A stretch of 64,000 nucleotides of DNA, from the IMG/VR virus record IMGVR_UViG_3300049830_000285, positions 32,001 to 96,000 of that record. One strand, given 5' to 3'. Shown here in pieces: positions 9,479 to 55,815 of the stretch. The notes beneath the pieces were generated by a model. The model was not told the origin of the DNA, did no database searches, and worked only from the letters and a program-made list of their open reading frames with translations. A program made the translations under genes and the position numbers. The stretch is from a virus. Each line of letters opens with the position of its first letter. The stretch's first letter is position 1.

Positions 9479-10015
9479 ATGTGGTATCGAAACATTGTGA
9501 CAGCGGAGCAACACACAAGTGTAATTGTGGCTCTTTGGCTGCCCGATGACAAAGCAAAAAAACTGGCTTTGAAAAAAACAGACGTAGACAAACCCGAAGC
9601 TGCTGACAGTCTACATTTAACAATGCTTTATATCGGAAAAGCAGATGCGCTTAAAGATAAACGTGAGCTTATTGAATCCGCTCTAGAAGCTATGTCAAAT
9701 CAATACCCGGCAATTAAGGGTAAAGTTCAAGGCGTTGGATGTTTTTCTGGCAATGATGAAACAAAACCATTTTATGCATCTTATGATTCTGCGGAGCTTT
9801 CAGAAATTCGACAAAAACTTGTTGAAACGATGGAATCTTTGGGAATCGAGCTTGATAAGACACATGGATTCACACCCCATATTACATTGGCTTATATTGA
9901 TGCCAATGATGATTTACCAAATGTTAATGTTCCAGATTTAGCTATAGATTTTGACAAATTGACACTAGCCTGGGCTGGAAAGCAAACTCATTATTCTTTA
10001 AACCAAAAAAGTTAA
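9479..10015 (+). CDS. 2H phosphoesterase (LigT / 2'-5' RNA ligase family)
   Basis: Two HxT motifs (LHLTM, PHITL). N-terminal MWYRNIVTA leader. Confidence 0.88.
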   Translation: MWYRNIVTAEQHTSVIVALWLPDDKAKKLALKKTDVDKPEAADSLHLTMLYIGKADALKDKRELIESALEAMSNQYPAIKGKVQGVGCFSGNDETKPFYASYDSAELSEIRQKLVETMESLGIELDKTHGFTPHITLAYIDANDDLPNVNVPDLAIDFDKLTLAWAGKQTHYSLNQKS

Positions 10016-10021
10016 GTAAAT

Positions 10022-11026
10022 TTGACATTATCCATGTATATGGATAATGTGATAGATGTAAATATACCAAAATTTTGGCTTGAGCAAGAGTATGTCGTAA
10101 AGCAGCGCAGTATGCAAGAAATTGCTTTTGATTTAGGTATCAGCGCTCAAATAGTATATAAAATTTTATGTACATATGGTATTCAAGTGCGAACTAATCA
10201 ATATGCCAGAAAACATCTCTCAATAGACAAAGATTGGCTTATTGAAGAGTATGTAAACAAAAGAAGAAGCACAACTGATATTTCGAAAGAATTGAATTGC
10301 GGTTACAACACAATTAATCGAAGATTACGAGAATACGGTATTGTGGTTCGTGATAATGGAAAGCCGCAAAAAACAGAATTATTAGGACAAACATTCGGCA
10401 AATGGACGGTGCTCTGCGAGATACCAGGAAAGACAGAACATCACTCTTGTCAATGGAAATGTCAATGCGTTTGCGGACAAATCAAAACACTGTCTACATA
10501 CACTTTGACATCTGGCGCTAGTAAAGGGTGTCTCACATGCGATATCGCGCAGACACAAGCGGAAAAGCACGTGATTACATCTTATTACTGGGGTTCTCTG
10601 CAAAGCAGTGCAAAAAAAAGAGGTTTAGATTTTGCAGTTACCAAAGATTATGTGGCTGATTTATATGAGAAACAGGGTCGAAGGTGCGCTTTAACTGGAT
10701 TGCGTCTGAATATGGCTGATACTCACTGCGCTTGGCGTGAGGGAAAGCAAACTGCTTCATTAGACCGTATTAACTCACTTATGACATATGAAGACGGTAA
10801 TGTTCAATGGGTTCATAAAATGGTTAATCTTGCAAAATGGGATATGCCACAAGAAGAATTTATTAGAGTTTGCCATTTGGTTGCTAAATTGCACCCTATG
10901 GAAATCGAAGAAGAAGTTGAAAATCCAGAAATTAGCATAGATGATGAAGAGACTTCAGAATGGGATTCAGATTTGTGGAGATGGGTGGATGAAAGAGTCA
11001 AACAAAAACAAATAGAAGAAGCGTAA
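10022..11026 (+). CDS. HNH-type homing endonuclease with tandem HTH repeats
   Basis: Two WL.EY...RS..I..LG/LN repeats, FGKWTVL..WKCQC.CG module, CALTG..SLDRINS..GNVQWV...VNLAK nuclease motif, acidic tail. True start may be ATG 10036 or 10042. Confidence 0.8.
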   Translation: MTLSMYMDNVIDVNIPKFWLEQEYVVKQRSMQEIAFDLGISAQIVYKILCTYGIQVRTNQYARKHLSIDKDWLIEEYVNKRRSTTDISKELNCGYNTINRRLREYGIVVRDNGKPQKTELLGQTFGKWTVLCEIPGKTEHHSCQWKCQCVCGQIKTLSTYTLTSGASKGCLTCDIAQTQAEKHVITSYYWGSLQSSAKKRGLDFAVTKDYVADLYEKQGRRCALTGLRLNMADTHCAWREGKQTASLDRINSLMTYEDGNVQWVHKMVNLAKWDMPQEEFIRVCHLVAKLHPMEIEEEVENPEISIDDEETSEWDSDLWRWVDERVKQKQIEEA

Positions 11027-11092
11027 TACGTATAGAATTAAAAAGGATTTCAGTTGATTTTGCGGTAAAATAATAGTTCGCGAGATGTCCCT

Positions 11093-11215
11093 ATGAGCAA
11101 AGAAAACCAAGAACTTAGCCTATCCTCTTCAGAGGAACGACAACCTGCCGAAGTAGAACAATCAGAAACAGATGCATTTTGGCATGCATATCCGTTAATG
11201 TTTGAACAATCGTAA
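11093..11215 (+). CDS. Small 40-aa ORF (MSKENQ...AFWHAYPLMFEQS)
   Basis: Read directly from sequence, below the ORF-track length cutoff. TAAAAT and a partial AGG-N18 motif lie upstream. Confidence 0.4.
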   Translation: MSKENQELSLSSSEERQPAEVEQSETDAFWHAYPLMFEQS

Positions 11216-11242
11216 TTTTATATTGTGATTGTAAGTCTATTA

Positions 11243-11270
11243 CGAGGGGTGGAAGTAATTCTGCCCCTCG
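11243..11270 (+). other. 12-bp hairpin with GNRA (GTAA) tetraloop
   Basis: CGAGGGGTGGAA-GTAA-TTCTGCCCCTCG, two G-U pairs, no U-tract. Confidence 0.6.
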
Positions 11271-11310
11271 CAGGCGTACTCGCTATATTTCCTCAAAATC
11301 ATATTTTCTG

Positions 11311-11319
11311 TGGTATCAT
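11311..11319 (+). promoter_or_regulatory. Extended -10 promoter for tRNA-pspA
   Basis: TG-G-TATCAT ending 8 nt before the tRNA 5' end. Confidence 0.55.
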
Positions 11320-11327
11320 ATGGGAAC

Positions 11328-11402
11328 GACCCCATAGTTCAGTGGTGGAACAGCTATCTCTAAAATGGCGTGTCGCGAGTCCGATTCTCGCTGGGGTCAC
11401 CA
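11328..11402 (+). tRNA. tRNA with CUA anticodon (amber suppressor type)
   Basis: Acceptor GACCCCA/TGGGGTC, A73, encoded CCA. D-stem GTTC/GAAC. Anticodon stem GCTAT/ATGGC with loop CT-CTA-AA. T-arm GCGAG-TCCGATT-CTCGC. Confidence 0.9.
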
Positions 11403-11416
11403 AGAGTAAAAAAAAT

Positions 11417-12217
11417 ATGAAACGATTCCTTAAATGGTTATCGGGTCTCTTCAATGTGTTCATGGACAAGGTTGAAGACCCAATGATTATGATTGACCAG
11501 GCTAAACGCGACATGCAAGAAAGCCTAGTCCATAATCGTGAACTCGCCGTACAAGCCTTGACACAAAAGAATAACCTAGCTGCTATGGTTAAAGCCGCTG
11601 AATCTCAGGTGGAAAAAAACAAGGCACAAGCTGGAATGGCTCTTAAGCAACGCGAAAGCTATGCACAAGGCACACCCCAGTATGATAATGCGCAAAAATT
11701 AGCTTTGCAATTCGCTGGAGAAATGCAAAACAATCAAGCACAGCTTGCCAATCTTCAAGCTTCATATGAACAAGCCGATGCTGCATGTGTAAATGTTAAA
11801 AAGGCATGTGACCGACAAGAAGCAGACTTCCGAAAGAAACTTGGCGAAGCTGCTGCTATGAAGGCAAACTACAAGAGCGCACAAGTTCAAAATGCTATTC
11901 AAAAAGCATTGTCGGAATTCAATTTCGAGAACATCAATGAGGGCTTTGGTGCTGCTGGTGAAAAGATTCAGAATATGCAAAGCGAAGCTGCTGCTCGAAC
12001 AGAAATGCAGAATTCGTCTCTTGCTGGAAAAGTTGCTGAACTCGAAGATGCTTCACACGACTTTGAGGCTCAAAATGCACTCTCTGACTTGGAAAAGCAA
12101 CTTGGCTTTGCTCCAACAACTGTGCAGACAACTGCGGCTCCACAGACCGTTTCTGTTGGCACGGGTGGGACTCCTGGCGGCGCATTAAGCGACCTTACCC
12201 AGCGTCTTAACCAATAA
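11417..12217 (+). CDS. pspA: PspA/IM30 family protein
   Basis: EDP.IMIDQA.RDMQ N-terminus and long coiled coil ending in L..LEKQLG. Start corrected to ATG 11417 because the track start 11225 runs through the tRNA. Confidence 0.88.
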   Translation: MKRFLKWLSGLFNVFMDKVEDPMIMIDQAKRDMQESLVHNRELAVQALTQKNNLAAMVKAAESQVEKNKAQAGMALKQRESYAQGTPQYDNAQKLALQFAGEMQNNQAQLANLQASYEQADAACVNVKKACDRQEADFRKKLGEAAAMKANYKSAQVQNAIQKALSEFNFENINEGFGAAGEKIQNMQSEAAARTEMQNSSLAGKVAELEDASHDFEAQNALSDLEKQLGFAPTTVQTTAAPQTVSVGTGGTPGGALSDLTQRLNQ

Positions 12218-12223
12218 TCAATC

Positions 12224-12251
12224 GTTTGGGGCGTATAAAATCGCCCCAAAC
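12224..12251 (+). terminator. Hairpin after pspA (terminator or processing site)
   Basis: GTTTGGGGCG-TATAAAAT-CGCCCCAAAC 10-bp perfect stem, no U-tract on +. Confidence 0.55.
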
Positions 12252-12260
12252 ACAACAAAT

Positions 12261-12348
12261 GCTCCAGTAGCTCAATGGTCAGTAGCCACGGTTTCTAAAG
12301 CAGAAGGCCCTCACAAGGTATATGCGGGTTCGAGTCCCGTCTGGAGCG
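12261..12348 (+). tRNA. Degenerate tRNA-like element, apparent CUA anticodon, long variable region
   Basis: Acceptor GCTCCAG/CTGGAGC, G73, T-arm GCGGG-TTCGAGT-CCCGT, loop TT-CTA-AA. Anticodon stem ACGGT/GCAGA has only 3 of 5 pairs. No encoded CCA. Confidence 0.6.
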
Positions 12349-12359
12349 CTCAAATTTAT

Positions 12360-12824
12360 ATGTTTAACAATTACCCCAATCCTGAACAAATCTGGTTTTT
12401 GCATGAAATAATGCAACCAGCCAATCGTCAATTTCCACCGACTACCCAAGAGGCTATTGATGACGAGGAAGAAATCAAACAACGATGTCGGCATATAAAC
12501 TTTATCTTTAATGAGTTGAAATGGAAAATAAACACCATTTTCTCCGAAGAAGAACAAGCCGAACTTCGAAGTCAACTTAATCCATTTAATAGGCCTGGTG
12601 AAATTTTCTTTGGCGCTGAGCATTATGCTGGATATGCAGAAGACCGAGTTCACGAAGCATTAACATCTGCTTTTGGTATTACTGGTGGATTGCAGCAGGG
12701 CGGCTTGATGGGCTCTGAGCAAGATGCCGCCGAAACAATTGCAAAAGGAAAAGAAGAAATTAAAGGATTTTTGTTGAAACTTGCTGAAAAACTTGGTGTT
12801 AAGGGCATGAAATTTGAAGATTAA
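12360..12824 (+). CDS. Hypothetical protein
   Basis: 154-aa ORF directly after the tRNA-like element. Confidence 0.7.
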   Translation: MFNNYPNPEQIWFLHEIMQPANRQFPPTTQEAIDDEEEIKQRCRHINFIFNELKWKINTIFSEEEQAELRSQLNPFNRPGEIFFGAEHYAGYAEDRVHEALTSAFGITGGLQQGGLMGSEQDAAETIAKGKEEIKGFLLKLAEKLGVKGMKFED

Positions 12825-12841
12825 CAAGAATTCCTCAAAAT

Positions 12842-12889
12842 CATGTTGTAGAATAATACTAACAAAGTGAATACCATGTTGTAGAATAA
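12842..12889 (+). repeat. 15-bp direct repeat CATGTTGTAGAATAA x2, each with a TAGAAT -10-like box
   Basis: Copies at 12842-12856 and 12875-12889, 33-bp period. Confidence 0.75.
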
Positions 12890-12900
12890 ACAAATCAAAT

Positions 12901-13005
12901 CTCACGCGCTTACCGAGGCGATGATTTCATCATCCGCTGAACGTGCGCCACCCGTGTGTCTCCTAACCTGCTTCGACACTACTACACGACCTTAGGAGAT
13001 TTAAA
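12901..13005 (+). promoter_or_regulatory. Candidate structured cis-regulatory leader with anti-SD
   Basis: TCTCCTAA (12959-66) is complementary to TTAGGAGA (12992-99), which contains the SD. GTGTC/GACAC forms an overlapping stem. Confidence 0.45.
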
Positions 13006-13419
13006 ATGAACACACTATCAAAACAAATTACGCCACTCTTCTTTAATGAAGACACTCGACACAACTGCTACAACGAAGTCAAAAAGCATTGGCTTAAACT
13101 TCAGGCTAACAGTGAAGAGCATCCGCTCACACTTGCTCACCACATTCTTTACGCTATTTTGCGTGGAAAGGATTGGCGCAAGGCTTTCACACCAGTTAGT
13201 AACGAGGTAAAGCTCGCGAATGGTGCAAGAGCAGAACTTGCTTTAACAGAGGCACAATACAGTCTTAATGCCCGTCTTGACGTGTTTAATGACTTCGCAC
13301 CACTGATTGACCCGAAAACATGCGCTGAGCTTGTCAGAGCAGCTATACAAGGTCGAAGAGCGGGCGCGTATAATCCAGCCGCTATTGAAGATATGCTTCT
13401 AAGCAAGGCGGTGGCATAA
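13006..13419 (+). CDS. Hypothetical protein (HILYAILRG motif)
   Basis: 137 aa with strong SD. Confidence 0.75.
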   Translation: MNTLSKQITPLFFNEDTRHNCYNEVKKHWLKLQANSEEHPLTLAHHILYAILRGKDWRKAFTPVSNEVKLANGARAELALTEAQYSLNARLDVFNDFAPLIDPKTCAELVRAAIQGRRAGAYNPAAIEDMLLSKAVA

Positions 13420-13445
13420 TGAGTCTGGATTTGTAGAACGAAAAC

Positions 13446-13745
13446 ATGTATATTTATGTTTTCGTTCGAACAGATATTCCTGTCGCTGACCAAATGGTTC
13501 AAGTTGGACACGTTTGTTATGAGGCTGGGCTAAAATTCAAAGCACAAGATGATACGTATTTAGTGCTCTGTCAGGTTGCTTCGCAAGAAGATTTACTTGA
13601 AGTTGAAATGAGGCTCAATAATTCTGGTGTAGAAACACATAAGTTTTTCGAGCCCGATGATGACATGGGGTATACAGCGCTTTGTACTCAGCCGATTAGC
13701 AAAGCAAATCGTAACTTGTTCCGAAGATATAAACTTTGGACATAA
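13446..13745 (+). CDS. Peptidyl-tRNA hydrolase 2-like protein
   Basis: YVFVRTDIP....VQVGH, LVLCQV and F.EPD...YTALCTQP match the phage Pth2-like pattern. Confidence 0.65.
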   Translation: MYIYVFVRTDIPVADQMVQVGHVCYEAGLKFKAQDDTYLVLCQVASQEDLLEVEMRLNNSGVETHKFFEPDDDMGYTALCTQPISKANRNLFRRYKLWT

Positions 13746-13749
13746 CAAA

Positions 13750-13774
13750 AGGAATAATGCTGCCGATTGGAGAA
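13750..13774 (+). promoter_or_regulatory. AGG-N18-NGAA motif
   Basis: AGG 13750-52, AGAA 13771-74, ATG 13797. Confidence 0.6.
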
Positions 13775-13796
13775 AAAATCTTTAATCGGTGGCATT

Positions 13797-14426
13797 ATGC
13801 GTTTATCCCTGGCAAAAAAACTTCTGAAAATAGCTAACGAACTCGACGCGCTCAGTTTGTATGAAGAAGCAAATTCCTTAACAAATATAGTGAGAGAAGC
13901 ACAAACTATGCCTGATATGTCTCAGACCCAAGCACCAACACAGCCATATCAACAGCCATATCAACAGCAACCTTGGACTGCTCCCGCCGCCGCACCAACA
14001 CCCTACAACGCTCCTCAAGCTCCCTACAACGCTCCATACAACGGTTATGCACAACAACAGAGTGGATGGTATAACCAACCTCAAATACCGCTGCCTCCGC
14101 AGAATAACGTAAATCCACAACAGACACAGCAACAACTGTTAAATATGCCAGCTAGTCCATTTACGGCAGTTAGGTTTGGGCCAGATGGTAAACCTCTTCC
14201 GCAACAAAGACAGCAGACAATGCAAGAATATGTAAACAACTATATCAAATCTATGCAAAGCAAAATGCAAGGTCAGGGTCAATCTGGCGCAAATAATACG
14301 ATTCAAAACGCTAGACAAATGCAGATTCAACAACGAAGAAATGAATTAGCTGCCGAAGATGCTCAATTGGCGTCAGAGCAATACAATCAAAATCTTGGTG
14401 ACGGACATCCAAAATTATATAAGTAA
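13797..14426 (+). CDS. Gln/Pro-rich low-complexity protein with IANELD-type leader (candidate internal head protein)
   Basis: N-terminus MRLSLAKKLLKIANELDALSLYEEANSLTNIVREAQ, then QQPY and PYNA repeats. Confidence 0.65.
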   Translation: MRLSLAKKLLKIANELDALSLYEEANSLTNIVREAQTMPDMSQTQAPTQPYQQPYQQQPWTAPAAAPTPYNAPQAPYNAPYNGYAQQQSGWYNQPQIPLPPQNNVNPQQTQQQLLNMPASPFTAVRFGPDGKPLPQQRQQTMQEYVNNYIKSMQSKMQGQGQSGANNTIQNARQMQIQQRRNELAAEDAQLASEQYNQNLGDGHPKLYK

Positions 14427-14828
14427 TTCAATCAGCATATCTTCGCCAACAATAGCGAATTGTTCAAAGGTAATATTTGGCACTTGAAATTCGACATTAC
14501 CCTTATCGTTTTTCCATATTTTACACTGGGATAGGTATTTACTTAGTGAAGTAACAATAAGTTCGCCAGCTTTTTTTCTCACTACGCCGAATGCACCGAA
14601 ACCAGCAATCGTGGCTTCTTTAATATTGATTTCGATATTACCATTTTCTAATGGATAAATCTGAAGGCGCATGGTTACAGCACCAAGTTTTAGATTTTTC
14701 TTAAAAGTGACATCTCCGTTTAAAGAGACATTCTGTTTCAAAATGTCAAGCGTTGGTATATATTTCGCATCAGTGAGTAACGCTGATAGCAAATCCACTA
14801 TTTCAGACTTGTTACATCGAATAATCAT
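14415..14828 (-). CDS. Hypothetical protein
   Basis: 137 aa, TAATG-coupled to upstream gene. Confidence 0.7.
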   Translation of the reverse strand: MIIRCNKSEIVDLLSALLTDAKYIPTLDILKQNVSLNGDVTFKKNLKLGAVTMRLQIYPLENGNIEINIKEATIAGFGAFGVVRKKAGELIVTSLSKYLSQCKIWKNDKGNVEFQVPNITFEQFAIVGEDMLIELLI

Positions 14829-15022
14829 TAGCCAGGTGTAATAATTACTTCAAGAATGACAGACGTATCTTTCGCAAGTGATTTTGTTAATTTAATGTCA
14901 CCTTCTATTGCGACCCCTTCAATGATTTGTTCCATTGCATCGAGTTTAACACCGGGGAACATCTGCTCAATCAATTTAATGATTTTTACAGGTTCGCTAC
15001 TTGACATTGTTAATTTAGCCAT
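14828..15022 (-). CDS. Hypothetical protein
   Basis: 64 aa, SD AGGAG upstream. Confidence 0.65.
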   Translation of the reverse strand: MAKLTMSSSEPVKIIKLIEQMFPGVKLDAMEQIIEGVAIEGDIKLTKSLAKDTSVILEVIITPG

Positions 15023-15105
15023 AATATACTCCTAATGGAGATTACACTCATTGGACAAAGTAATCCTTTTCCTCATATGTGAAAAATGTGGTAATATTTC
15101 ACATA

Positions 15106-15570
15106 ATGAACAAACTTATCATTATGCGAGGCTTGCCAGGTTCTGGTAAAAGCACCAAAGCGCAACTATTGGTTGGTGATGGTAAAATCTACGCTACTGA
15201 TGATTATTGGGGTGACGATTATGCTTTTGACCGAGCACGTATTGGAGAAGCACATGAATGGAATCAACAGCGCGTTCACGAGGCGATTGTTGCTGGCGTA
15301 AGTCCAATTGTTGTAGATGCGACAAATATGCAAATGTGGGAGATGCAACCTTATGTTGAATTTGCTAACGCTTTTAACTACGATATATCCTTCCATGAAT
15401 CAGATGCGCCTTGGAAATTTGATGCAGAAGAACTTGCACAGAGAAATCGACACGGAGTTCCTATTGAAATTATCAAGCAAATGTTGATGAATTGGGAGAA
15501 AGAACCAACAGTGGAAAAAGTTCTTGCAGCAGTTCGACCCAAGTTTGGTAGTTGGCGGGACGAAGAATAA
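15106..15570 (+). CDS. P-loop kinase, AAA_33 / N4BP2-like (polynucleotide kinase-like)
   Basis: LIIMRGLPGSGKST, AHEWNQ, IVVDATN and RN.HGVP motifs. Start set at ATG 15106 behind TGGTAATAT. Confidence 0.8.
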   Translation: MNKLIIMRGLPGSGKSTKAQLLVGDGKIYATDDYWGDDYAFDRARIGEAHEWNQQRVHEAIVAGVSPIVVDATNMQMWEMQPYVEFANAFNYDISFHESDAPWKFDAEELAQRNRHGVPIEIIKQMLMNWEKEPTVEKVLAAVRPKFGSWRDEE

Positions 15571-15584
15571 TCTTCATCGTCAAT

Positions 15585-15620
15585 AAAAGAGAGACAGCAA
15601 ATTCTACTGTCTCTCTTTTT
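15585..15620. terminator. Bidirectional Rho-independent terminator
   Basis: AAAAGAGAGACAG-CAAATTCTA-CTGTCTCTCTTTTT. Confidence 0.85.
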
Positions 15621-15728
15621 GTATTAAGGTATTTTTAATGTCGCAAATTGCTCTTAAATAGTATAGGAATTTTTGAAATTCTACATAAATATTCCATAGG
15701 TGGTGCTACGAACACCACTTTTACTAAC

Positions 15729-16799
15729 ATGACAATAGCTCTATGCGGATTTTATGCTAAATACAATTTTGGAGATGACTTGATGGCTCATCATCTTTCC
15801 AGGGTGCTATCTGTTGACGACACACATACTGTTAGAATTTTTTCAGATAAAAGTCTTGATAATGTAGAAAATGGTATGGCGTCCAATGGTCATTTAGATT
15901 GTGATGTTATTGTTATCGGTGGCGGCGGAATCGTCAACAATGATTTTTGGGCATTCAAAAATGATGGATTGATAAAACTCAAAAATGCACAAAAGCCCAT
16001 CGCATTTGTCAATGTAAATATTACGAGCGAGATTTTGAAAGATTCACAACTGATTGAGGATTTAAAATCTCTAAAAGCCAAATGGTGGGTTAGAAATAGA
16101 CAATCTGTGGATATTTTAACAGAAATCGGCATCACAGCATCACTTGTGCCAGATATCAGTTTTAGGCCAGGTGTCGTAACGCCATATAATAAAATGGCTG
16201 GAAAGAAACAATTATCAGTATTCTTAAACAGTTATGTATTTAACGACTTGCTTCATAACGACAATGTAAATCAATTTGTTCAAGCATTGCATAACTGTCG
16301 AATTATAGCTCAATTTTGTGATTGGATGGCAACTTTTGGTTGGAATATAACGTTCTTTTCGGCTCACACAGCTAAGTATGTTGATGACCGAATTCCATCT
16401 GCCTTTGTCTTTGGAACGATGCAAAATAAAGATGCAGCTAAATGGGTTGCAGAACCATTGGCATGGGATGACTTGATAAGAGAAATAGCACACAGTGATT
16501 TGGTGCTATCTATGCGTTTTCACTCAACAACAACGGCGTTGGCAGCAGGAGTTCCGTGTGTAGACATTACTCATCATGCAAAGAATAAATCTTTGCTTGA
16601 TGAAATTGGCGCACTATGTATTTCGGCTGAATATTCTTCACTTACACACGAGGCTCTTGTAAAAGCAGCGCAATGTGCAGAAAACCCAACATCTCATGAT
16701 AATAGAGTAAAAGCTTATCGCTCTGAAGCTGCTACTCGTTGGGAGTTATTTGACCGAGAATGGAGCACATACTTAAACAATCTAGAAGGATTACAATGA
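15729..16799 (+). CDS. Polysaccharide pyruvyl transferase family protein
   Basis: GFY...NFGDDLM, VIVIGGGG and SMRFHS...AL..GVP motifs. Start set at ATG 15729. Confidence 0.8.
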   Translation: MTIALCGFYAKYNFGDDLMAHHLSRVLSVDDTHTVRIFSDKSLDNVENGMASNGHLDCDVIVIGGGGIVNNDFWAFKNDGLIKLKNAQKPIAFVNVNITSEILKDSQLIEDLKSLKAKWWVRNRQSVDILTEIGITASLVPDISFRPGVVTPYNKMAGKKQLSVFLNSYVFNDLLHNDNVNQFVQALHNCRIIAQFCDWMATFGWNITFFSAHTAKYVDDRIPSAFVFGTMQNKDAAKWVAEPLAWDDLIREIAHSDLVLSMRFHSTTTALAAGVPCVDITHHAKNKSLLDEIGALCISAEYSSLTHEALVKAAQCAENPTSHDNRVKAYRSEAATRWELFDREWSTYLNNLEGLQ

Positions 16800-18214
16800 A
16801 CAACAACGACCACCACAACAAAGAAAATTTCTCAACAAAACTGCTAAGGGAAATGTGGGAATTTATATTTCACAAACACGATTCCCCCCATTGTGGTTGC
16901 CCTCCTCACTGCGGCGAACCCCCTCATTGTGGCGAACCCCCTCACTGCGGTTGTCCCCCTGACGGTGGCGGCATAAACATTGGTTGTGCTTTTGCTTTAT
17001 TTTTGTTTTGGTTTTGGCTGCCAGTGATGATGTTTGTTATGAAACTTGGAAGTAAATCAAATAAAAAAAAAGATGAAGAAATTAAAGTAAAGCCAAAAGT
17101 TGCTTTTATTAGTGTTTATAACACTCCATGCGGTATATCAACATACAACGAACAATTGATAAAACAATTGAGAAAGCATGCTGATGTTCATGTGTTCGCT
17201 GAATATGCCGATGATGAAAAAAATATCAGCATAGAAGGCGACCCCGATTTTGTAACTCGTTGTTGGAGTCGGACTGAGCACCCTAAAACAAAATTAATGT
17301 TTGCAGTGGATAACTGGAAACCAGATTTGATTCATTTTGGTCATGAATATGGTTTTTTTGCCAAAGCCTATTTGTTCACGTCTCTTGTTTCTTGGTTCAA
17401 AGCACACAAATATATTGTTATAGCAACAATGCATTCTATTTATGAGCACAGAGATAAAACTGTTCAAGAGGCGAGTGGTCAAATTATTATCACACATACA
17501 GAGTCTGGTAAAAAATGTCTAACAGATAAAGGAATAGACCCGTCTATTATCACCGTCATTCCACATGGCTCCAATGTTTTAGATGGTGATGCTGGTAATC
17601 CGAAGTTACTACCAGCACTCTGGAACACATGGCAGAACGAACATACAATTTTTCAACCCGGTTTTCTGTTTGACTACAAGGGTCATATTAGGATGCTTGG
17701 TGTGATAGCTGAGTTGAAAGAAAAATACCCAGATATTCATTACATTATTCAAGGTTCTGAAAACCCAAATAACATGAAGGAACACGACAGGGTATTTCAA
17801 CGATTAGTTTCAGAATGTAAACGATTGAATATAGAGGAAAACGTTACCATCAATCGAGGCTTTGTGAGCGAAGATGTATTGATGTCGTTTGTTCGCACCA
17901 CCAAAGTATGTGTTTTGCCATATATTAGCCATCCCGAGCACGATGTTTGCTCTACATCTGGTATTGCCAGAGTAGTAGTCGGGACTGAAATACCGCTAAT
18001 CACAACCAAAGTACATCTTTTTGATGATGTTGCTGGCATAGCCACTCAAGTAGGGAATGACCATGAACTGTATAATGCTATTGATGATGTATTTAGCAAC
18101 CCGCAAGCGCAAGGCGCTGCGAACAATGCTCGCGTGGAATTTTTGAAACAAACCAATTGGGATAATGTTGCAAAAATGCACTTTGACTTGTATACAAAGG
18201 TTATAAAGGGCTAA
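16796..18214 (+). CDS. Glycosyltransferase, GT-B (GT4-like), with N-terminal His/Cys repeats and TM segment
   Basis: CGISTY, DLIHFGHEYG, IPHG, PGFL..YKG, VLPY and G.PLITT motifs. ATGA overlap with upstream gene. Confidence 0.8.
   Translation: MNNNDHHNKENFSTKLLREMWEFIFHKHDSPHCGCPPHCGEPPHCGEPPHCGCPPDGGGINIGCAFALFLFWFWLPVMMFVMKLGSKSNKKKDEEIKVKPKVAFISVYNTPCGISTYNEQLIKQLRKHADVHVFAEYADDEKNISIEGDPDFVTRCWSRTEHPKTKLMFAVDNWKPDLIHFGHEYGFFAKAYLFTSLVSWFKAHKYIVIATMHSIYEHRDKTVQEASGQIIITHTESGKKCLTDKGIDPSIITVIPHGSNVLDGDAGNPKLLPALWNTWQNEHTIFQPGFLFDYKGHIRMLGVIAELKEKYPDIHYIIQGSENPNNMKEHDRVFQRLVSECKRLNIEENVTINRGFVSEDVLMSFVRTTKVCVLPYISHPEHDVCSTSGIARVVVGTEIPLITTKVHLFDDVAGIATQVGNDHELYNAIDDVFSNPQAQGAANNARVEFLKQTNWDNVAKMHFDLYTKVIKG
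16883..16960 (+). repeat. In-frame 18-nt tandem repeat x4 encoding (S/P)PHCG(C/E)
   Basis: tccccccattgtggttgc cctcctcactgcggcgaa ccccctcattgtggcgaa ccccctcactgcggttgt. Confidence 0.85.
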
Positions 18215-18222
18215 AACATGAA
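18198..18222 (+). promoter_or_regulatory. AGG-N18-NGAA motif
   Basis: AGG 18198-200, TGAA 18219-22, ATG 18241. Confidence 0.55.
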
Positions 18223-18240
18223 ATATTGTGTGGTGATGTC

Positions 18241-18675
18241 ATGAAAAGAAAAGAAGTTATTGCTACGTTGATTCATATTTCTGATGATTTAGATAGCATG
18301 GGAATGTTTGATGATGCAGATTCGCTAACCCGTTTTGCACAAGCTTGGGGCGAATTAGGGATGCACGATGTAGAATCGAATCCAGATAACGATGCCGCAG
18401 AGCATGGATTTATGGGCGAGCATCAATATGAACAAGAGCAAAAATTAATGAATGAAATGAACAATGAAGATGCATTGATGACTCTTGATGCACGCATTAA
18501 GGAACTTCAACATAAACCAGCTCCAACAATGGAAGAAATTCACGAATTAGAATCTCTGTTGGATTATCGAATGGGCGACGGATTTGATTCTTCAAATGTA
18601 TCTTCTCCGCACAAACACGATGAATCCGGTTTTGTCAATGAATTGCAAAACGCGGGCGCTAAAGTAATTAACTAA
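18241..18675 (+). CDS. Acidic protein with ISDDLD-type leader (candidate internal head protein)
   Basis: N-terminus MKRKEVIATLIHISDDLDSMGMFDDADSLTRFAQ. Confidence 0.65.
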   Translation: MKRKEVIATLIHISDDLDSMGMFDDADSLTRFAQAWGELGMHDVESNPDNDAAEHGFMGEHQYEQEQKLMNEMNNEDALMTLDARIKELQHKPAPTMEEIHELESLLDYRMGDGFDSSNVSSPHKHDESGFVNELQNAGAKVIN

Positions 18676-18998
18676 GTGTTGATATCACCAAGACCAAGCC
18701 AAAAATCTTCATCGAAAGGTGGAGATTCAACACTTTGTTTTTCAGACTCTGATTGACTAAAAACTTGTTCATTTGTTGTGGTGTCAAATCGCAAATCTGA
18801 ATATTTTTCTTTTAAACTTGTCATCATGTCGGCGGTAGCGAGTTTAAAATCAGCATGAGACTGTAATGAAATACACAGCCAATTTATTAAATCTTTTTGC
18901 GAAAAATCAGAAGATTTTCTTGCTCTCATGCCGCGAATCATCTGCATTAATTCATTGGCTTCTTGTCTCATTTTATTAATTGCTTCTTTGGGTTCCAT
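18672..18998 (-). CDS. Hypothetical protein (ends in TAG), last gene of tail operon
   Basis: 108 aa, starts 1 nt after the upstream stop. Confidence 0.7.
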   Translation of the reverse strand: MEPKEAINKMRQEANELMQMIRGMRARKSSDFSQKDLINWLCISLQSHADFKLATADMMTSLKEKYSDLRFDTTTNEQVFSQSESEKQSVESPPFDEDFWLGLGDINT

Positions 18999-18999
18999 A

Positions 19000-21433: not shown

Positions 21434-21450
21434 ATTATCCTTATACGTGT

Positions 21451-32432: not shown

Positions 32433-33154
32433 TATTGTTGTTGTACCTCTTGTGGATTATTGTTAGAAATGGGTGCATTAGCCTGCATTTGCTCGTCTTG
32501 TTTTAAATACTGAGGTACAAATTCGGTTCCCTCTCCTTCTGGCAGCAAGCCAGTTGCCTCCATATCTTTGCGATGGATTAGAGTATATGTTTTGCTCGTT
32601 TCAAGAGCATTGGGCGTATCTGAGGCAGAAGACACAAAACGTGGATATTCAACCTCAACATCCATATAACCACCGGAAACGTCATTATAAATTTCGATTG
32701 CATCAGGGGCATAAATACTTCCTTTCATTTTATTTAGGTGTTGGGCTTGTCGCTTTGTTACATTAATTGCCATAACCCAACCGCCACGGTCGTGTGCGAA
32801 TTGAATAGCTTTATCTATTGGAAGATTCAAATGCATTGGTTCCTTTAAATTGTAGACGACAATATGAAACTTATCAGCACACGTATAATCTTCCCCTGGC
32901 GCTACATAAATATCTAATCCAGATTGTTTTGCGATTTGTGTTGCTTGCCATCCTACTTGTGGACTGTTCGGAGCCACAATACCCACCATATCTAATCCTT
33001 TAATGATAGCTGATGTAAGCATTGATTTCAAAACTGAACTAACATCATTTGTGTTGGCAACCTGGGACATATCGCCTGGATATACGCGCAAATCTACGCG
33101 CATTTGATGTTTGCGTAAAGATGTTCGTATAGATTGCGGTGTATACCAGGACAT
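32432..33154 (-). CDS. PHP-fold protein lacking metal ligands
   Basis: RVDL, A..KGLDMVGI, PGED, HIVVY, GGWVMA, DAIEIYN and ASD align to PHP, but the conserved His residues are replaced. Confidence 0.6.
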   Translation of the reverse strand: MSWYTPQSIRTSLRKHQMRVDLRVYPGDMSQVANTNDVSSVLKSMLTSAIIKGLDMVGIVAPNSPQVGWQATQIAKQSGLDIYVAPGEDYTCADKFHIVVYNLKEPMHLNLPIDKAIQFAHDRGGWVMAINVTKRQAQHLNKMKGSIYAPDAIEIYNDVSGGYMDVEVEYPRFVSSASDTPNALETSKTYTLIHRKDMEATGLLPEGEGTEFVPQYLKQDEQMQANAPISNNNPQEVQQQ

Positions 33155-33166: not shown

Positions 33167-33191
33167 TTCTGCAAATTAGTCTGGATGTCCT
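33167..33191 (-). promoter_or_regulatory. AGG-N18-NGAA motif
   Basis: Minus strand AGG 33191-89, AGAA 33170-67, ATG 33154. Confidence 0.6.
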
Positions 33192-34448: not shown

Positions 34449-35618
34449 TTACTTATTAAGATTCGTTTCGAACTTTCTAAGTGCCTCTAGAATTTCTCCT
34501 TCAGAGGATTTATCGAGAATATCTGACATACTCATTCCTTTCTTTCGATATTCTACTGCTTCAGGCCAAATTTTATTGATTGGATGCTCGCTTAATATCT
34601 TGGGGTCAGTGTTATCAGCAATTTCTGCATATGAATCATTAACATATTTAGACAGTGTAAGCATTCTATTAATTAGCGATTGTGTTGAGAATATTTCCCC
34701 GGTTATTCCGCTGCTAAGCGAAGCATGACTACCAGTACCTCCTCCACCACTACCCGTGTTATAGCCACTTCCTGCATCCATCATGCGAATTTCTCGCAAA
34801 GCTGTAAGTTCATCTTGCGGAGAATAAAATTGAAGCATTTGAAGAAATTTGGGATTTCTTAATTTTAATCTGTGAAAATATTTGTCGATGAGAATATAAC
34901 CCTCGTAAGATAATGGGTCACTATTCTTCTCAATCAATTTTTGAGCACTTTCTAAATCTTTTACTTTCACGAAAGGTACTTTTAAATTTGGAAATTCCAT
35001 CTCATAAATATCTAATTCTTCTAATGTATCTCGGGCTATGGCAGCTATCAGAGTAACTTTTCTATCTGTGTAAACTACCACAACTCTATTTTCGGGTGAT
35101 GTTATTTCAAATGTGTAGAAAATATCTTGATTGAGTTGCGAAGTGAATGTATTCCAATCACTTCCCATGTCTTGAATGCATTTTTCCACTAGCTGTCGCC
35201 AAGTATAATTTGAAGGACTAGCGTTAATTGTGTAATTTTTGATATCACCATCAGTGGAATGTCTAGTACATACGCGCCATTCATTCTGATAATGGTAAAA
35301 TGTGATAAGAGCGCCATCTAATTTGGTCATAGCCCGAGCGCTTGACCAGTCAAAGTTAGCAATGGTTGGTGCTGCATAAGTTTCTTCTACTGCGAAAAAA
35401 GCCTCAGGCGACTTACTTACAACATTCCATGTTCCTACTTCCAGCACGAGTGCGCGACTCTCTTGTACAATTTTCGAATCCATTGGTGAAAGAACTCTGT
35501 AATTAAATACTACTCGTTGGTTGTCAGACGAGTAGTTGTGTTGAATCTCATATCTTTGGTATAAATCTTCTAGGGTTTTACCAGAGCGTAAAAAAGTTTG
35601 AATGGCGAGTTCTTTCAT
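34449..35618 (-). CDS. RNA ligase, T4 Rnl1 family
   Basis: FNY, ESRALVL, KLDG (motif I), FEITSPENRVV, EGYILID (motif IV) and RLKLRN (motif V variant). Confidence 0.85.
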   Translation of the reverse strand: MKELAIQTFLRSGKTLEDLYQRYEIQHNYSSDNQRVVFNYRVLSPMDSKIVQESRALVLEVGTWNVVSKSPEAFFAVEETYAAPTIANFDWSSARAMTKLDGALITFYHYQNEWRVCTRHSTDGDIKNYTINASPSNYTWRQLVEKCIQDMGSDWNTFTSQLNQDIFYTFEITSPENRVVVVYTDRKVTLIAAIARDTLEELDIYEMEFPNLKVPFVKVKDLESAQKLIEKNSDPLSYEGYILIDKYFHRLKLRNPKFLQMLQFYSPQDELTALREIRMMDAGSGYNTGSGGGGTGSHASLSSGITGEIFSTQSLINRMLTLSKYVNDSYAEIADNTDPKILSEHPINKIWPEAVEYRKKGMSMSDILDKSSEGEILEALRKFETNLNK

Positions 35619-44571: not shown

Positions 44572-44573
44572 AT

Positions 44574-46769: not shown

Positions 46770-46783
46770 CTTGTATAAGTTAG

Positions 46784-47008: not shown

Positions 47009-47010
47009 AA

Positions 47011-48333
47011 ATGCAAGATAATATTAATGCTTTTCATAAAGAGGCTTTTGCTACACCGCAGGGTTTTGAAGCCGATGTGGAAAATTCATATGATGAAGCT
47101 CCATATGAAAAAGGGCTACAAACACAGGGTATGGTTGCAGCTAAATACACATCTGGTGACACGAGATATCAAGCTGAACAGCCGTTAATTCAAAGTCATT
47201 TAACTACATTGCCTTCCAAAGTATCTAAGCGATATTCTCCTCAGAATGATGAACAAAACACAGGGATGCCACTTCCACCAGAACCAACTTTTATGAAAGA
47301 TAGTGGTCGTCCTGAAAGAATTACATCGGTGAGGGGATTAATTAACAGAGAGAATATACCTGTTAGTGAAAAAAGGAAATCTTCACCATTAGCGGGAGTT
47401 GATTTTGCTAGAACTCACTCGGAAGCTGCTGCTTTGTTGGAGAGATTGGGGAAAAAGGTATCTTTCGAAGCTCATCATAGCGCGTTAGTTCAAGAGGCTT
47501 CGCAAAAATCATTACAAACATCTGTGAACAATGATATTGAACGCATTACGGTTGATTTACGTAAAGCTAAAGCTGAAATTGCAGACCTTGGAAGTAAAAT
47601 TGTATTATCTTCTGTTCCAGAAAAGAATTATGATAATCTTAATTTAGTTGCCGTTGGTCAAGAAGCTTTTGCATTAGATAGTCAATTGCGCACTGCTAAA
47701 TCAGCAAAGACTTTTGTCGCAACACGTAATGTTCGACCAAGTGATGCCATATCAGCGAATGAACTATTTGCGCAAGAACAAGCTGAATATGAAGAAATTT
47801 TATCTCAATCAACCGAGGCATCAAATCGCGCTCAGGCACTTGCAACACAACGTAGCGCAAATTTAGTGACACTCATCGAAGATAAGTTGGCAAAAGCCAA
47901 AGAAGAGTCTGATGAAATTTTAGATGCCGAAGATGCCACAAAAGTAATTCGCAGAGTAATGGACGATTATGTTCAAATGCGTAGTAATAACTCCAAAGAA
48001 CAACATGTTCAGATGCGAAATGTTGAAACCAAGGTAAAGAAAATTATGCAAGCCGAACTACCAGAAGAAATAGAATCAAAGGTTGACGCAGTAAACGAAA
48101 TTAAAGAGATTATTCACGAAGTTGTGAAATCACACCCAAACCTAGTTCAAAGAAACTCGGGAAGTAATGATATGGAATTCTCCTTGGCGGCGAGAGATAC
48201 ATATTTGAGAGTTCAAATAGAACAAGAGCTTCGAGAGAAATTCGAATTAAGATTAGTGGAAAATAATAAATTGATGGAGAAAAAGAATCTAGTTGTTTTT
48301 GAAGAAATGATAGACAGATTCCTTAACCCATAA
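47011..48333 (+). CDS. Hypothetical coiled-coil protein
   Basis: About 440 aa, TAATG-coupled to the next gene. Start set at ATG 47011. Confidence 0.7.
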   Translation: MQDNINAFHKEAFATPQGFEADVENSYDEAPYEKGLQTQGMVAAKYTSGDTRYQAEQPLIQSHLTTLPSKVSKRYSPQNDEQNTGMPLPPEPTFMKDSGRPERITSVRGLINRENIPVSEKRKSSPLAGVDFARTHSEAAALLERLGKKVSFEAHHSALVQEASQKSLQTSVNNDIERITVDLRKAKAEIADLGSKIVLSSVPEKNYDNLNLVAVGQEAFALDSQLRTAKSAKTFVATRNVRPSDAISANELFAQEQAEYEEILSQSTEASNRAQALATQRSANLVTLIEDKLAKAKEESDEILDAEDATKVIRRVMDDYVQMRSNNSKEQHVQMRNVETKVKKIMQAELPEEIESKVDAVNEIKEIIHEVVKSHPNLVQRNSGSNDMEFSLAARDTYLRVQIEQELREKFELRLVENNKLMEKKNLVVFEEMIDRFLNP

Positions 48334-52595: not shown

Positions 52596-52610
52596 TGTAC
52601 AATATGTAGC

Positions 52611-52961
52611 ATGAACACCAATATTAAATCAACTCCAACAGAACCTGTAAATTTTCGCATCAATACTGAAATGGTGGTTAATTTAAAAAGACTCGCCAGA
52701 CATGTATCTTATCATCTTGATGATGATTATACTTATGTGGACATCATTAGATGTTTGCTGGCAGAACATTTTCCAGTTCCAGAGACAGACTTAATTGCAG
52801 ATACCCAATCAAAACAGGTACAAGATATTTGTTCACGTATTACCAGACAGGCTGCTTTAGCGGGCGTACCGTACATTTCCTCAACCTTTACATCCAGTAC
52901 ATCTATAGAAGGAACTACAATTTCTGGCTTAAAACAAAACAACCTAGATGAGAGCGAATAG
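52611..52961 (+). CDS. Ribbon-helix-helix-like DNA-binding protein (ends in TAG)
   Basis: PVNFRINTEMVVNLKRLA....TYVDIIRCLL fits a strand-helix-helix pattern. TACAAT lies 7 nt before the ATG. Confidence 0.5.
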   Translation: MNTNIKSTPTEPVNFRINTEMVVNLKRLARHVSYHLDDDYTYVDIIRCLLAEHFPVPETDLIADTQSKQVQDICSRITRQAALAGVPYISSTFTSSTSIEGTTISGLKQNNLDESE

Positions 52962-52984
52962 GATTCGTTCAAATTAATGTTGAA
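52960..52984 (+). promoter_or_regulatory. AGG-N18-NGAA motif upstream of cca
   Basis: AGG 52960-62, TGAA 52981-84, ATG 53014. Confidence 0.55.
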
Positions 52985-53013
52985 CAAATATTAAGCGTAG
53001 GTTGTAAATCATC

Positions 53014-55815
53014 ATGTGGTATGGAAAAATGTTGAAAGCAAATAAAAATGGAATCTCACGAGAGGAATTGAACATCCCTCTGAGCGGCGCTTTGCAACAA
53101 ATTCTACAAACATTGGTACAAAATGGCTGGAGAGGCTTGGTCGTTGGCGGGGCTGTTCGAGACGCTGTAACAGGTCATGTTCCCAAGGATATCGACGTTG
53201 AAGTTTACGGGCCTGATTTCAAACAGCTTGCGGCAGTTCTCAAGCAATATGGTCATGTACTTGGCGGCGCAGCGGATGAATCAGTAGACGATAATTCATA
53301 TCAAGAATTTGTGCCCATTCCTTATTTTCCAGAAAAGTTCAGGGATTCACAACCATCTCAAATGAGTTCAGATGGCCCAATTCCCAATCAAGGGTGGATG
53401 TACAATCTAAATCCAAAGCCTCAAAAATCTCCTGTTATTGGAAAGGCGTTCGGTGTTATCAAATTTAGAGATGCCGAAGGGAACGATTATGACTTCTCCT
53501 TACCTCGTCGTGACAGTAAGACGGGTGAGGGTCACACTGGATTTGATATTCAAGTAGACCCAAATATGTCTCCACTTGAGGCTGCATCACGGCGTGATTT
53601 TACGTTTAATTGTTTTTCATCTGAAACAAGAATGTTGACAAAAGCTGGAATTTTTAGTTTTTCAGAGTTGGTAGAACAGTATGTTGATGTTTTAAATCAA
53701 AACGGTGAATGGGTCAATGCTTTAATTAGAGCATGCGGACAACAGCCGTTAATGAAGTTAATTTTACAAAGAAATGGAGTTAAAAAAGAAATATTTGTAA
53801 CACCAAATCACAGATGGTTTGTGCGCAACAAACATACTGGAAATTACACATCTGTACGCACCACTGAAGAATTAAAAAAATGTCATTTTATATCATCTGT
53901 TTTTCCTAAAAATATTTCAAAAGATGTTATCCCAAATAATGATGCAATATGTCGCGGGTTTGTGTTTGGCGATGGGTCTTTAACATATGGTAGTAGAAAC
54001 ATTGCTAGTGTTGCAAATTTTTGTGGAGAGAAAGACAAAAATTTATTACCTTGTTTTTCAAAACTCCCTGTAGGTTGTTCTCCAAGAGAATACCCTGGTG
54101 TCATAAAAATTCAAGGATTGCCATTTGAGTGGAAAGCCCATGTTCCTGATTTAGAACACGAAGATACATCGTATTTATATGGATGGTTGGCGGGATATTT
54201 TGCCGCAGACGGCTGTGTTGATAAAAAAGGGTGCCCGACATTAAGTTCTGCATCGTTAGAAAACATTGAATATGTAAAAATGTTATGTCAAAAACTAGGA
54301 ATAGGAACTTTACACACAAGTGTTTCTCACGGAGGCGCTGGGGCATACAAACCAGACTCTGTGTGTTATATACTTGCTTTTGTAAGGTCAACACTATGCC
54401 CTGAGTTTTTTGTAATTCCTGAACACAGAAAAAGATTTGTGTCTCATCAATACAATAGAGAAAGAACTGGATGGAGCGTTGTTTCAGTTGAAGAAACTGA
54501 CCGTTACGAAGAAGTTTTTTGCGCAGAAGTGCCAATTGACCATGCATTTGTTTTAGAGCACAATGTATTAACTTCGAATTCACTTGCATACGACCCGTTG
54601 ACAAACGAACTTCATGATTACTTTGGCGGTAAAAAAGATTTGGATAATCGAATTTTGCGTGCTACAGATATGGAAAAATTTGGGGAAGACCCACTGCGCG
54701 TTTTGCGCGGTATGCAATTTGCTGCCAGAATGGGATTGACAGTAGACCCGCAAACTGCAAAGTTGGCGCAAAATCTTGCAAATGAAATTCCTAATCTTTA
54801 TAAGTCTCCAGAGAATCCAAATGGCATCTCTCGCGAACGTGTAACTGAAGAATTTATGAAGCTTGCTACCAAGGGTAAATTCCCAGGTAGTGCAATTCAG
54901 TACCTTCAAGATACTGGTTGGGTAAAATACTTCCCGCAAGTTCAGGCTATCATTGATGTACCGCAGGATGAAGAGTGGCACCCAGAGGGAGCTGTACATA
55001 TTCACACAGCACACGTCATGAACGCTGCTGCTGAAATCGCTGATAGGCGCGGTTTGAAAGGTGATGACAGGGCTGTTGCAATCTTTGCAGCGCTCGGGCA
55101 CGACTTCGCTAAAGCAACGACAACAGAGCAGCGCGAAAAGGGCGGACGAATGCGATGGACGGCACATGGGCACGAAGAGGCTGGCGGGCCGGTGGTAAAA
55201 GAGTTTTTACAGAGCATCGGAGTTAAAAATGACATTATTAATCGTGTTGTTCCGCTTGTCCGTAAGCATTTGAATCACATTCAATACAAAGACGAGAACA
55301 TTTCCAAGGGAACTGTTCGTGGTTTGTCGCATGATATTTACCCTGCGACTATAGAAGACTTGGTTGACTTGATTGAAGCAGACCATTCTGGACGCCCGCC
55401 TTTGGAGAAGATGCTACCAGAGCAAGCTCAATGGTTATTGGATGCGGCTAAGAAAGATAATGTTCACAATCAGAAGCCACAACAGGTTATCACTGGAAAG
55501 CATGTATTGCCATGGTTCCAGGGTAAAGTTGGCCCGCACGTCGGAAAAGCAGTTAAGGAAGCTTATGAAGCCTACTTAAAGGGCAGATACACCACCCCAG
55601 AAGAGGCAGAAGTATGGTTACGCAACTATATGAAGGCAAATGCTCAATTACTGCGTGGTGATGATGTTTTGCCATATTTTGGCGGTAAAGGCGGCGCTCA
55701 AGTCGGACAAATATTAGATAAAGCCTGGGACGCTCAATCTGCTGGTGAATATACTGACCAAGATGCAGCGAGAGCTTGGTTGGAAAACTATATGAAAACT
55801 AACCCATCCGCTTAA
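53014..55815 (+). CDS. cca: Class II tRNA nucleotidyltransferase (CCA-adding) with HD domain, intein-containing
   Basis: VGGAVRD..DIDVE, RRDFTFN, EDPLRVLRG.QFAAR, SRERV.EEF.K, HPEG..HIH and GHDFAK motifs. Confidence 0.92.
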   Translation: MWYGKMLKANKNGISREELNIPLSGALQQILQTLVQNGWRGLVVGGAVRDAVTGHVPKDIDVEVYGPDFKQLAAVLKQYGHVLGGAADESVDDNSYQEFVPIPYFPEKFRDSQPSQMSSDGPIPNQGWMYNLNPKPQKSPVIGKAFGVIKFRDAEGNDYDFSLPRRDSKTGEGHTGFDIQVDPNMSPLEAASRRDFTFNCFSSETRMLTKAGIFSFSELVEQYVDVLNQNGEWVNALIRACGQQPLMKLILQRNGVKKEIFVTPNHRWFVRNKHTGNYTSVRTTEELKKCHFISSVFPKNISKDVIPNNDAICRGFVFGDGSLTYGSRNIASVANFCGEKDKNLLPCFSKLPVGCSPREYPGVIKIQGLPFEWKAHVPDLEHEDTSYLYGWLAGYFAADGCVDKKGCPTLSSASLENIEYVKMLCQKLGIGTLHTSVSHGGAGAYKPDSVCYILAFVRSTLCPEFFVIPEHRKRFVSHQYNRERTGWSVVSVEETDRYEEVFCAEVPIDHAFVLEHNVLTSNSLAYDPLTNELHDYFGGKKDLDNRILRATDMEKFGEDPLRVLRGMQFAARMGLTVDPQTAKLAQNLANEIPNLYKSPENPNGISRERVTEEFMKLATKGKFPGSAIQYLQDTGWVKYFPQVQAIIDVPQDEEWHPEGAVHIHTAHVMNAAAEIADRRGLKGDDRAVAIFAALGHDFAKATTTEQREKGGRMRWTAHGHEEAGGPVVKEFLQSIGVKNDIINRVVPLVRKHLNHIQYKDENISKGTVRGLSHDIYPATIEDLVDLIEADHSGRPPLEKMLPEQAQWLLDAAKKDNVHNQKPQQVITGKHVLPWFQGKVGPHVGKAVKEAYEAYLKGRYTTPEEAEVWLRNYMKANAQLLRGDDVLPYFGGKGGAQVGQILDKAWDAQSAGEYTDQDAARAWLENYMKTNPSA
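53611..54579 (+). mobile_element. Intein with LAGLIDADG homing endonuclease (323 aa)
   Basis: Cys1 CFSSETRMLT, block B TPNH, GFVFGDG and LAGYFAADG motifs, C-terminal VLTSN followed by Ser+1. Removal restores RRDFTFN-SLAYDP. Confidence 0.92.

Follow-up and report, generated by a model that had tools for sequence, protein, structure and literature searches.

The closest described counterpart of the leader reported here is the capsid targeting sequence (CTS) of phage T4, which Mullaney and Black reportedly described in 1996 for Alt and the internal proteins IPI-III. Alt itself is an ADP-ribosyltransferase that is packaged in the head and has propeptides that are cleaved (PMC9026906). Encapsulins offer a second parallel, since unrelated enzymes are brought inside an HK97-fold shell by short terminal peptides, which are acquired and lost as modules. 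Giant phages of the phiKZ and SPN3US type have many enzymes in the head, and the prohead protease cuts the propeptides of their ejection or internal proteins at a simple recurrent motif (PMC5694885, PMC7411985). A common short leader is not known to us from those phages. In this study, we analyzed a 64,000 bp stretch of an uncultured phage, bases 32001-96000 of a 177,708 bp viral record with 40% G+C (IMG/VR IMGVR_UViG_3300049830_000285), which is called the window below. Three proteins of the window and three encoded elsewhere in the record begin with M-W-Y or M-S-W-Y, and the evidence strongly supports the view that this leader is a real, portable N-terminal tag placed ahead of unrelated folds. 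A full-text literature search found no paper on an MWY tag. The tagged genes and their leaders are as follows, in window coordinates unless the genome is named.

9479..10015, plus strand: 2H (LigT-like) phosphoesterase of 178 amino acids, with the MWY leader at about residues 1-13 and HxT motifs at H46 and H134
9479..9505, plus strand: leader of the 2H protein, first nine codons, delimited from homologue N-termini
53014..55815, plus strand: class II CCA-adding enzyme with an HD domain, 933 amino acids, split by an intein; assigned from Pfam, PHROG and homologue N-termini
53014..53064, plus strand: leader and linker of the CCA enzyme, about residues 1-17, preceding a conserved LNIP segment
32432..33154, minus strand: PHP-fold protein of 240 amino acids with the MSWY leader; assigned from an AlphaFold 2 (AF2) model, Foldseek, a family alignment (A1) and synteny
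33119..33154, minus strand: leader of the PHP-like protein, first 12 codons, from alignment A1
genome 26270, plus strand: 176-residue MWY protein, directly upstream of the portal gene
genome 154502-155242, plus strand: 246-residue MWY protein, outside the window
genome 135793, minus strand: 159-residue MWY protein, outside the window, for which the gene caller had picked an upstream GTG

The original prediction assigned similar leaders to the 2H, CCA/HD and PHP-like proteins, and all three start as described (9479 plus, 53014 plus and 33154 minus). It had under-counted the set, as three further MWY starts lie outside the window, giving six bearers in all: M-W-Y on five open reading frames (ORFs) and M-S-W-Y on one in the 177.7-kb genome. 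With Trp at 1.5% and Tyr at 3.8%, 0.10 MWY starts were expected among the 176 genes of our own crude gene call, and five were seen (Poisson P = 3.8e-6). WY dipeptides across the proteome occurred at expectation (30 seen, 30.4 expected), indicating an excess confined to N-termini. The word ATGTGGTAY occurs six times in the genome, five times as an ORF start and once in frame inside a gene for 2874 amino acids; about 0.75 internal MWY would be expected proteome-wide. This sixth word, ATGTGGTAT, stands at about codon 1436 of the giant gene (genome 115664, plus strand) and could reflect either chance or an internal start. In all three window genes, an in-frame stop lies 3-8 codons before the ATG, and no other start codon comes between the two.

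The leader is selected at the protein level. Tyr after Trp is encoded by TAT and TAC about equally in relatives, either CGA or AGA serves for Arg at position 4, and 0-3 residues may follow Met before WY, which together argue for action of the peptide; overall, the number of residues between Met and WY ranges from 0 to 9. The resulting pattern is M-(0-3 residues)-W-Y, then usually K/R, at least one hydrophobic residue and a small residue. The T/K-A/S ending that had been proposed stood only in part: a small residue is found at position 9 of the 2H and CCA proteins or position 12 of the PHP-like protein, but there is no uniform motif. The leader is conserved in the phage subfamilies of the 2H, CCA and PHP-like proteins alike, with M1, W2, Y3 and A9 nearly invariant in the 2H subfamily alignment (A2) and W3 and Y4 nearly invariant in alignment A1, where family members start MWY, MSWY or MERSWY. 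Among 19 homologues of the 2H protein, down to 36% identity, 16 start with MWY; among these homologues are two with MWY behind a short upstream extension and two more variants (MGWY, MWW), and MWY is absent only from the most distant one, which came from NCBI/ENA. For the CCA enzyme, 48 of the 120 listed homologues start with MWY or its GTG-start equivalent, and in another eight WY follows shortly after the start; the leader is missing from some phage-type homologues, which start at the LNIP segment. A leader in cellular orthologues had been named beforehand as grounds for rejecting the idea. The leader was found in none of 78 cellular CCA homologues from Acidobacteriota, Verrucomicrobiota and other metagenome-assembled genomes (MAGs), retrieved with a tagged phage-type enzyme (P0101) and 46-60% identical to it, which favors the finding. 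The GGxVRD motif lies at about position 24-27 in the shortest and commonest cellular N-termini, versus 38-48 in most tagged phage forms.

As predicted, the leaders lie ahead of the folds in the 2H, CCA and PHP-like proteins. The first strand of the 2H fold begins at about residue 14, and the alignment with PH0099 from the PDB starts at residue 42, with the first HxT (H46) opposite PH0099 residue 40. In the AF2 model of the PHP-like protein, strand 1 begins at residue 17; the predicted local distance difference test score (pLDDT) is 82.7 overall and below 50 for residues 1-9. The leader residues scored below 50 in both AF2 models, that of the PHP-like protein and that of the 246-residue protein, and the tag is exposed in these models. 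The tag is not specific to RNA-end enzymes: the other bearers are a disordered protein of the head module and the 246- and 159-residue proteins, the 159-residue one without a Pfam or PHROG match.

A connection of the tag with the head comes from the 176-residue protein, which is disordered and acidic. In each of the 12 related loci that extend upstream of the portal gene, the gene preceding it encodes a small MWY[RK]...GGG protein, and this constant position supports head loading. In the present genome, the portal gene comes next after the tagged gene, and behind it lies a polyprotein gene.

genome 29444-33760, plus strand: polyprotein of 1438 amino acids with an N-terminal prohead-protease domain (the protease-scaffold polyprotein)

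The protease domain (about residues 57-246), whose family was assigned by motif only, matches the head-maturation-protease PHROG phrog_18299 and had no significant match among PDB sequences. R-x-A-Q occurs four times in the long low-complexity remainder of the polyprotein (about residues 307, 1187, 1197 and 1370), compared with 0.7 expected, and an FGGG word resembles one in the tagged head protein. A Cys-rich loop is inserted in the protease domain, and behind the domain come linkers rich in Gly, Pro and Gln, repeats and, at the C-terminus, a pair of zinc ribbons. In Bacillus phage G, gp13 is a small gene just before the portal gene and its product starts M-K-R-L-I-S-K-T-A-A, without WY; judged by its basic, hydrophobic and K-x-A layout, this start may be an equivalent leader.

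Relatives of the phage show the tag being exchanged and placed on other cargo. The 246-residue protein belongs to a large, unannotated family with an N-terminal GEYW...ADGDxGDxNHE block (284 matches at E <=0.001). Among the best 150 of these matches plus the query, 49 had no prefix before the block, 18 had the WY tag and at least 10 had a different tag of 25-35 residues at the same junction. A [KR]-x-A box within 14 residues before the GEYW domain was present in 11/18 WY tags, 7/11 long tags and 7/46 other prefixes; two different address parts with a common [KR]-x-A end fit a design of address plus cut site. E11, W13, G27 and H31 are invariant in the family, and a further prefix type is MKIYKIAQ-like. 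The AF2 model of the 246-residue protein is confident (pLDDT 89.5); Foldseek gave no PDB match at E <1, and VIA-align reached a Z of 5.2 at most. A 261-kb relative (G001) has nine ORFs with an MWY start; ART-PolyVal (ADP-ribosyltransferase), Fic and DnaJ domains are found on three of them, and the other six had no Pfam or PHROG match. ATGTGGTAY occurs 13 times in that genome, and the same word reversed, which served as a control, occurs twice. At the portal, 13 IMG/VR contigs are 51-80% identical to the present phage, and the nearest portal of a cultured phage is that of Bacillus phage G (29% identity); no near relative was found among GenBank phages by DNA or with the PHP-like protein. No gene starting with MWY was found in Bacillus phage G or in two other distant relatives, the uncultured phage LR745208 and virus Rctr197k, indicating that the tag belongs to the uncultured clade, whose members are freshwater phages with a distant relationship to Bacillus phage G.

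The tag shares several properties with the T4 CTS. Both are very short N-terminal peptides (10-19 residues in T4) on unrelated proteins of one phage, six in the present phage and nine in G001; both are dispensable for the fold; and both are found on host-modifying cargo, an ADP-ribosyltransferase being tagged in G001. A candidate protease site follows the address part in most tags of the GEYW family, although the 2H and CCA leaders do not fit it strictly. In contrast, the two have no sequence similarity, the candidate site is [KR]-x-A where T4 has L/I-x-E, and the MWY tag tolerates 0-9 residues before WY. The phages differ too, as the portal is nearest to that of Bacillus phage G and the protease is fused to a scaffold-like polyprotein instead of being of the gp21 type. 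Packaging and cleavage have been shown by experiment in T4 and are predicted for the MWY tag. Encapsulin peptides, unlike the MWY tag, are usually C-terminal and not removed, and the shell here would be a DNA-filled phage head. The analogy with the T4 CTS drawn in the original prediction proved reasonable, because the tag heads a conserved portal-adjacent protein and relatives tag ADP-ribosyltransferase, Fic and DnaJ domains.

All three window genes were said to sit behind a motif, AGG-N18-NGAA, that also precedes head and tail operons. The motif was located 9, 29 and 12 nucleotides before the respective start codons.

9445..9469, plus strand: AGG-N18-AGAA, 9 nucleotides before the ATG of the 2H gene, overlapping the extended -10-like word TGGTAGAAT
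52960..52984, plus strand: AGG-N18-TGAA, 29 nucleotides before the ATG of the CCA gene, spacing-specific motif
33167..33191, minus strand: AGG-N18-AGAA, 12 nucleotides before the ATG of the PHP-like gene, spacing-specific motif

Within 60 nucleotides upstream of called starts, 18 sites had a spacer of 18 nucleotides, compared with one to four for each other spacer from 12 to 24. AGG-N18-NGAA is thus a real, spacing-specific promoter-like element. It precedes 5/20 genes of the neck/tail module, in which it is over-represented (the tail-terminator-like and ligase genes are included), lies about 60 nucleotides upstream of the protease-scaffold gene and is present before the first of three giant genes, in agreement with the predicted association with head and tail genes. 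Genome-wide, tagged starts were enriched behind the element, as had been anticipated (4/6 tagged genes, including the one at 135793, versus 13/170 others; Fisher P = 8e-4), and a fifth tagged gene sits in the head-gene cluster. A second class comprises 33 genes with an extended -10 word, TGnTAnAAT/GGTAnAAT, most often 5-6 nucleotides before the start codon. These genes are mostly small and lie mainly at 120-178 kb and at 5400-18700 of the window. The spacing of only 5-6 nucleotides implies leaderless mRNAs for much of this early-looking set. Some of these genes also have an upstream TTCCTCA box. In a close relative, G005, the 2H orthologue has AGG-N18-AGAA and the same 9 nucleotides, without the extended -10 pattern.

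Taking the position of the 176-residue protein, the exchange of prefixes and the cargo of relatives together, we suggest, as the best of the readings considered, that the tag may work like the T4 CTS and load proteins into the phage head, a reading by analogy that we hold with about equal measures of belief and doubt. The exposed tag would dock the protein to the assembling head core, that is, to the protease-scaffold polyprotein, the portal or the shell interior; an HK97-type prohead protease might then remove the tag at a [KR]-x-A-like site, and the cargo would leave with the DNA. Several observations weigh against this reading. The three window leaders lack a strict [KR]-x-A box, ending in V-T-A (2H), L-K-A (CCA) and R-T-S (PHP-like). 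[RK]-x-A-[QE] is only 1.8-fold enriched proteome-wide and is not clearly concentrated within 25 residues of N-termini (11 versus about 7 expected). The tagged gene at 154502 has no AGG motif, the element of the 2H gene also resembles the extended -10 class of early-looking genes, and the AGG class would be late only as judged from shared promoter words. Most structural genes had no match in PHROGs and Pfam and the major capsid protein was not found, leaving no capsid propeptide site for comparison. Because phage G has no MWY starts, virion studies of that phage are not transferable.

One competing view, that the shared start reflects chance or a common ancestry of the proteins, has only the shortness of the motif in its favor. 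It is refuted by the counts (P = 4e-6 here, 13 words versus 2 control words in G001) and, for ancestry, by the unrelated folds (2H, nucleotidyltransferase, PHP and a fold without a PDB match), and we consider it scarcely credible. Conservation at the RNA level, with ATGTGGTAT serving as a translation-start context, for example in leaderless mRNAs, is another view: several tagged genes have a promoter-like element only 9-12 nucleotides before the ATG, which would leave very short leaders, and 33 other genes have the extended -10 word, most about 5-6 nucleotides from the start codon. However, other genes that share the short-leader promoters of the tagged ones do not begin with MWY, tagged genes of relatives have ordinary Shine-Dalgarno contexts, insertions after the ATG retain WY but not the nucleotide word, and both Tyr codons and both Arg codon families are in use. 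An RNA-level role is therefore very unlikely.

Two further alternatives accept a protein-level signal and differ from head loading in its purpose. The tag could be a processing or turnover signal, either a propeptide whose cleavage by a phage protease would activate the enzymes or a degron that sets the time of their breakdown. The [KR]-x-A box at the junction of tag and domain does resemble sites of the protease polyprotein, and the aromatic residues W and Y resemble N-end-rule residues. Methionine aminopeptidase, however, is not expected to remove Met before Trp, so that W would not become N-terminal; moreover, anything from 0 to 9 residues separates Met from WY, and a disordered peptide of 6-9 residues is an unlikely inhibitor of three different folds. 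We regard this alternative as improbable. It is less improbable, but still unlikely, that the tag docks proteins to some other common partner or place without encapsidation, such as the neck or tail, an assembly chaperone, the host RNA polymerase or ribosome, or a phage-made compartment. Portability would suit any docking function, two bearers are among the early-looking genes, and the PHP-like bearer is encoded by a core gene of the neck/tail module rather than the head module. In contrast, the bearer with the highest conservation has its gene immediately before the portal gene in each of the 12 relatives examined, and both alternative tags end in a box that is enriched in the protease-scaffold polyprotein; these two points favor head loading.

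Two of the window bearers have the features of RNA-end enzymes. The 2H protein scored above the cut-off for the Pfam families 2_5_RNA_ligase2, LigT_PEase and AKAP7_NLS and below it for the Acb1 model (19 bits versus 27). Both HxT/S motifs of the 2H lobes are present, and H46-x-T48 and H134-x-T136 are invariant in alignment A2. The protein also matches positions 395-557 of phrog_18402 (861 positions, annotated as head maturation protease; E 8e-13), a hint at fusions of 2H domains with head-protease polyproteins in other phages. The CCA enzyme matched Pfam PolyA_pol, HD and LAGLIDADG_3 and phrog_2244 (tRNA nucleotidyltransferase, E 6e-57); the GGxVRD, DxD and RRD motifs of the head domain and the HD domain are present, and the exteins are intact around the following insertion.

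53611..54579, plus strand: LAGLIDADG intein of about 323 amino acids, inserted in the CCA enzyme immediately behind its RRD active-site motif

Homologues of 565-606 amino acids are intein-free, and those of 786-1107 amino acids probably contain inteins too. Like bacterial class II CCA enzymes and LigT/2H enzymes, the phage forms retain the catalytic motifs; unlike them, they add the N-terminal tag, and the phage CCA gene adds the intein. ARAGORN called 22 tRNA genes at genome 139-177 kb and in the window, and 21 of them encode their own 3' CCA, implying that the CCA enzyme would serve to mend tRNA ends and not to finish new tRNAs. A tRNA with a CUA anticodon at window 11328-11402 is among the 21; the sole call without CCA is an irregular tRNA-like one at genome 44261 (window 12261-12349).

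The PHP-like protein was also predicted to be an RNA-end enzyme, and this assignment probably does not hold. By Foldseek, its PHP fold matched TM0559 and the RNase AM PHP domain (E 3e-7), with a probability of 1.0 to TM0559, RNase AM and PolC PHP domains and template modeling (TM) scores of about 0.46-0.5. The HxH of strand 1 is kept in two of the 23 aligned members (P0019 and P0020) and replaced by R-x-Y here and by C-x-F in others, and no His is invariant in alignment A1; the metal-binding motif of PHP enzymes is thus lacking in this protein. The gene occupies the same position in the neck/tail module of G001, whose portal is 52% identical. It is flanked on one side by the gene of an Rnl1-like ligase and one small gene, and on the other by a small gene, a tail-terminator-like gene and a gene for 1539 amino acids.

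34449..35618, minus strand: Rnl1-like RNA ligase (T4 gp63-like), matching phrog_562 (E 2e-27)

Given the loss of HxH and its place as a syntenic core gene of the neck/tail module, the PHP-like protein is probably no RNA-end enzyme. Judged from its sequence, it is probably an inactive pseudo-enzyme with a structural or assembly role. The Rnl1-like ligase has the promoter motif 10 nucleotides upstream and no MWY leader. Of the proposed RNA-end repair kit, the CCA and 2H enzymes thus remain, whereas the PHP-like protein falls away and the ligase is untagged. In its fullest form, the head-loading reading would have a clade of large freshwater phages loading interchangeable enzymes by means of a 6-10 residue M-W-Y-K/R-h-A tag; in the present phage, the CCA and 2H enzymes would provide virion-delivered repair of tRNA ends before phage gene expression, for example against defenses that cleave tRNAs or trim CCA. 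We put this forward tentatively and consider it possible but doubtful as a whole.

Should the tag prove to load the head, it would rank among the shortest known signals of this kind, and it would stem from a lineage without relation to T4. The set of injected proteins of hundreds of uncultured large phages could then be read directly from sequence, and such phages would deliver ready-made tRNA-end repair enzymes together with effector domains (ADP-ribosyltransferase, Fic). The tag could also serve as a compact means of packaging foreign proteins into phage heads. Should the tag bind something other than the capsid, the recognition of a portable docking tag of six residues on dozens of folds would still be a tractable problem.

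Among other proteins of the genome, a 619-residue protein of the head module had no match in the ESM Atlas, a 345-residue protein had no match by tblastn, and a 444-residue protein is tail-fibre-like by tblastn. The MWY-tagged CCA/HD enzyme P0101 is an NCBI record in a 1.36-Mb contig of a MAG labeled 'Armatimonadetes bacterium', and G005 is a provirus according to its IMG/VR class; this contig and the provirus class may help to trace the host or point to lysogeny.

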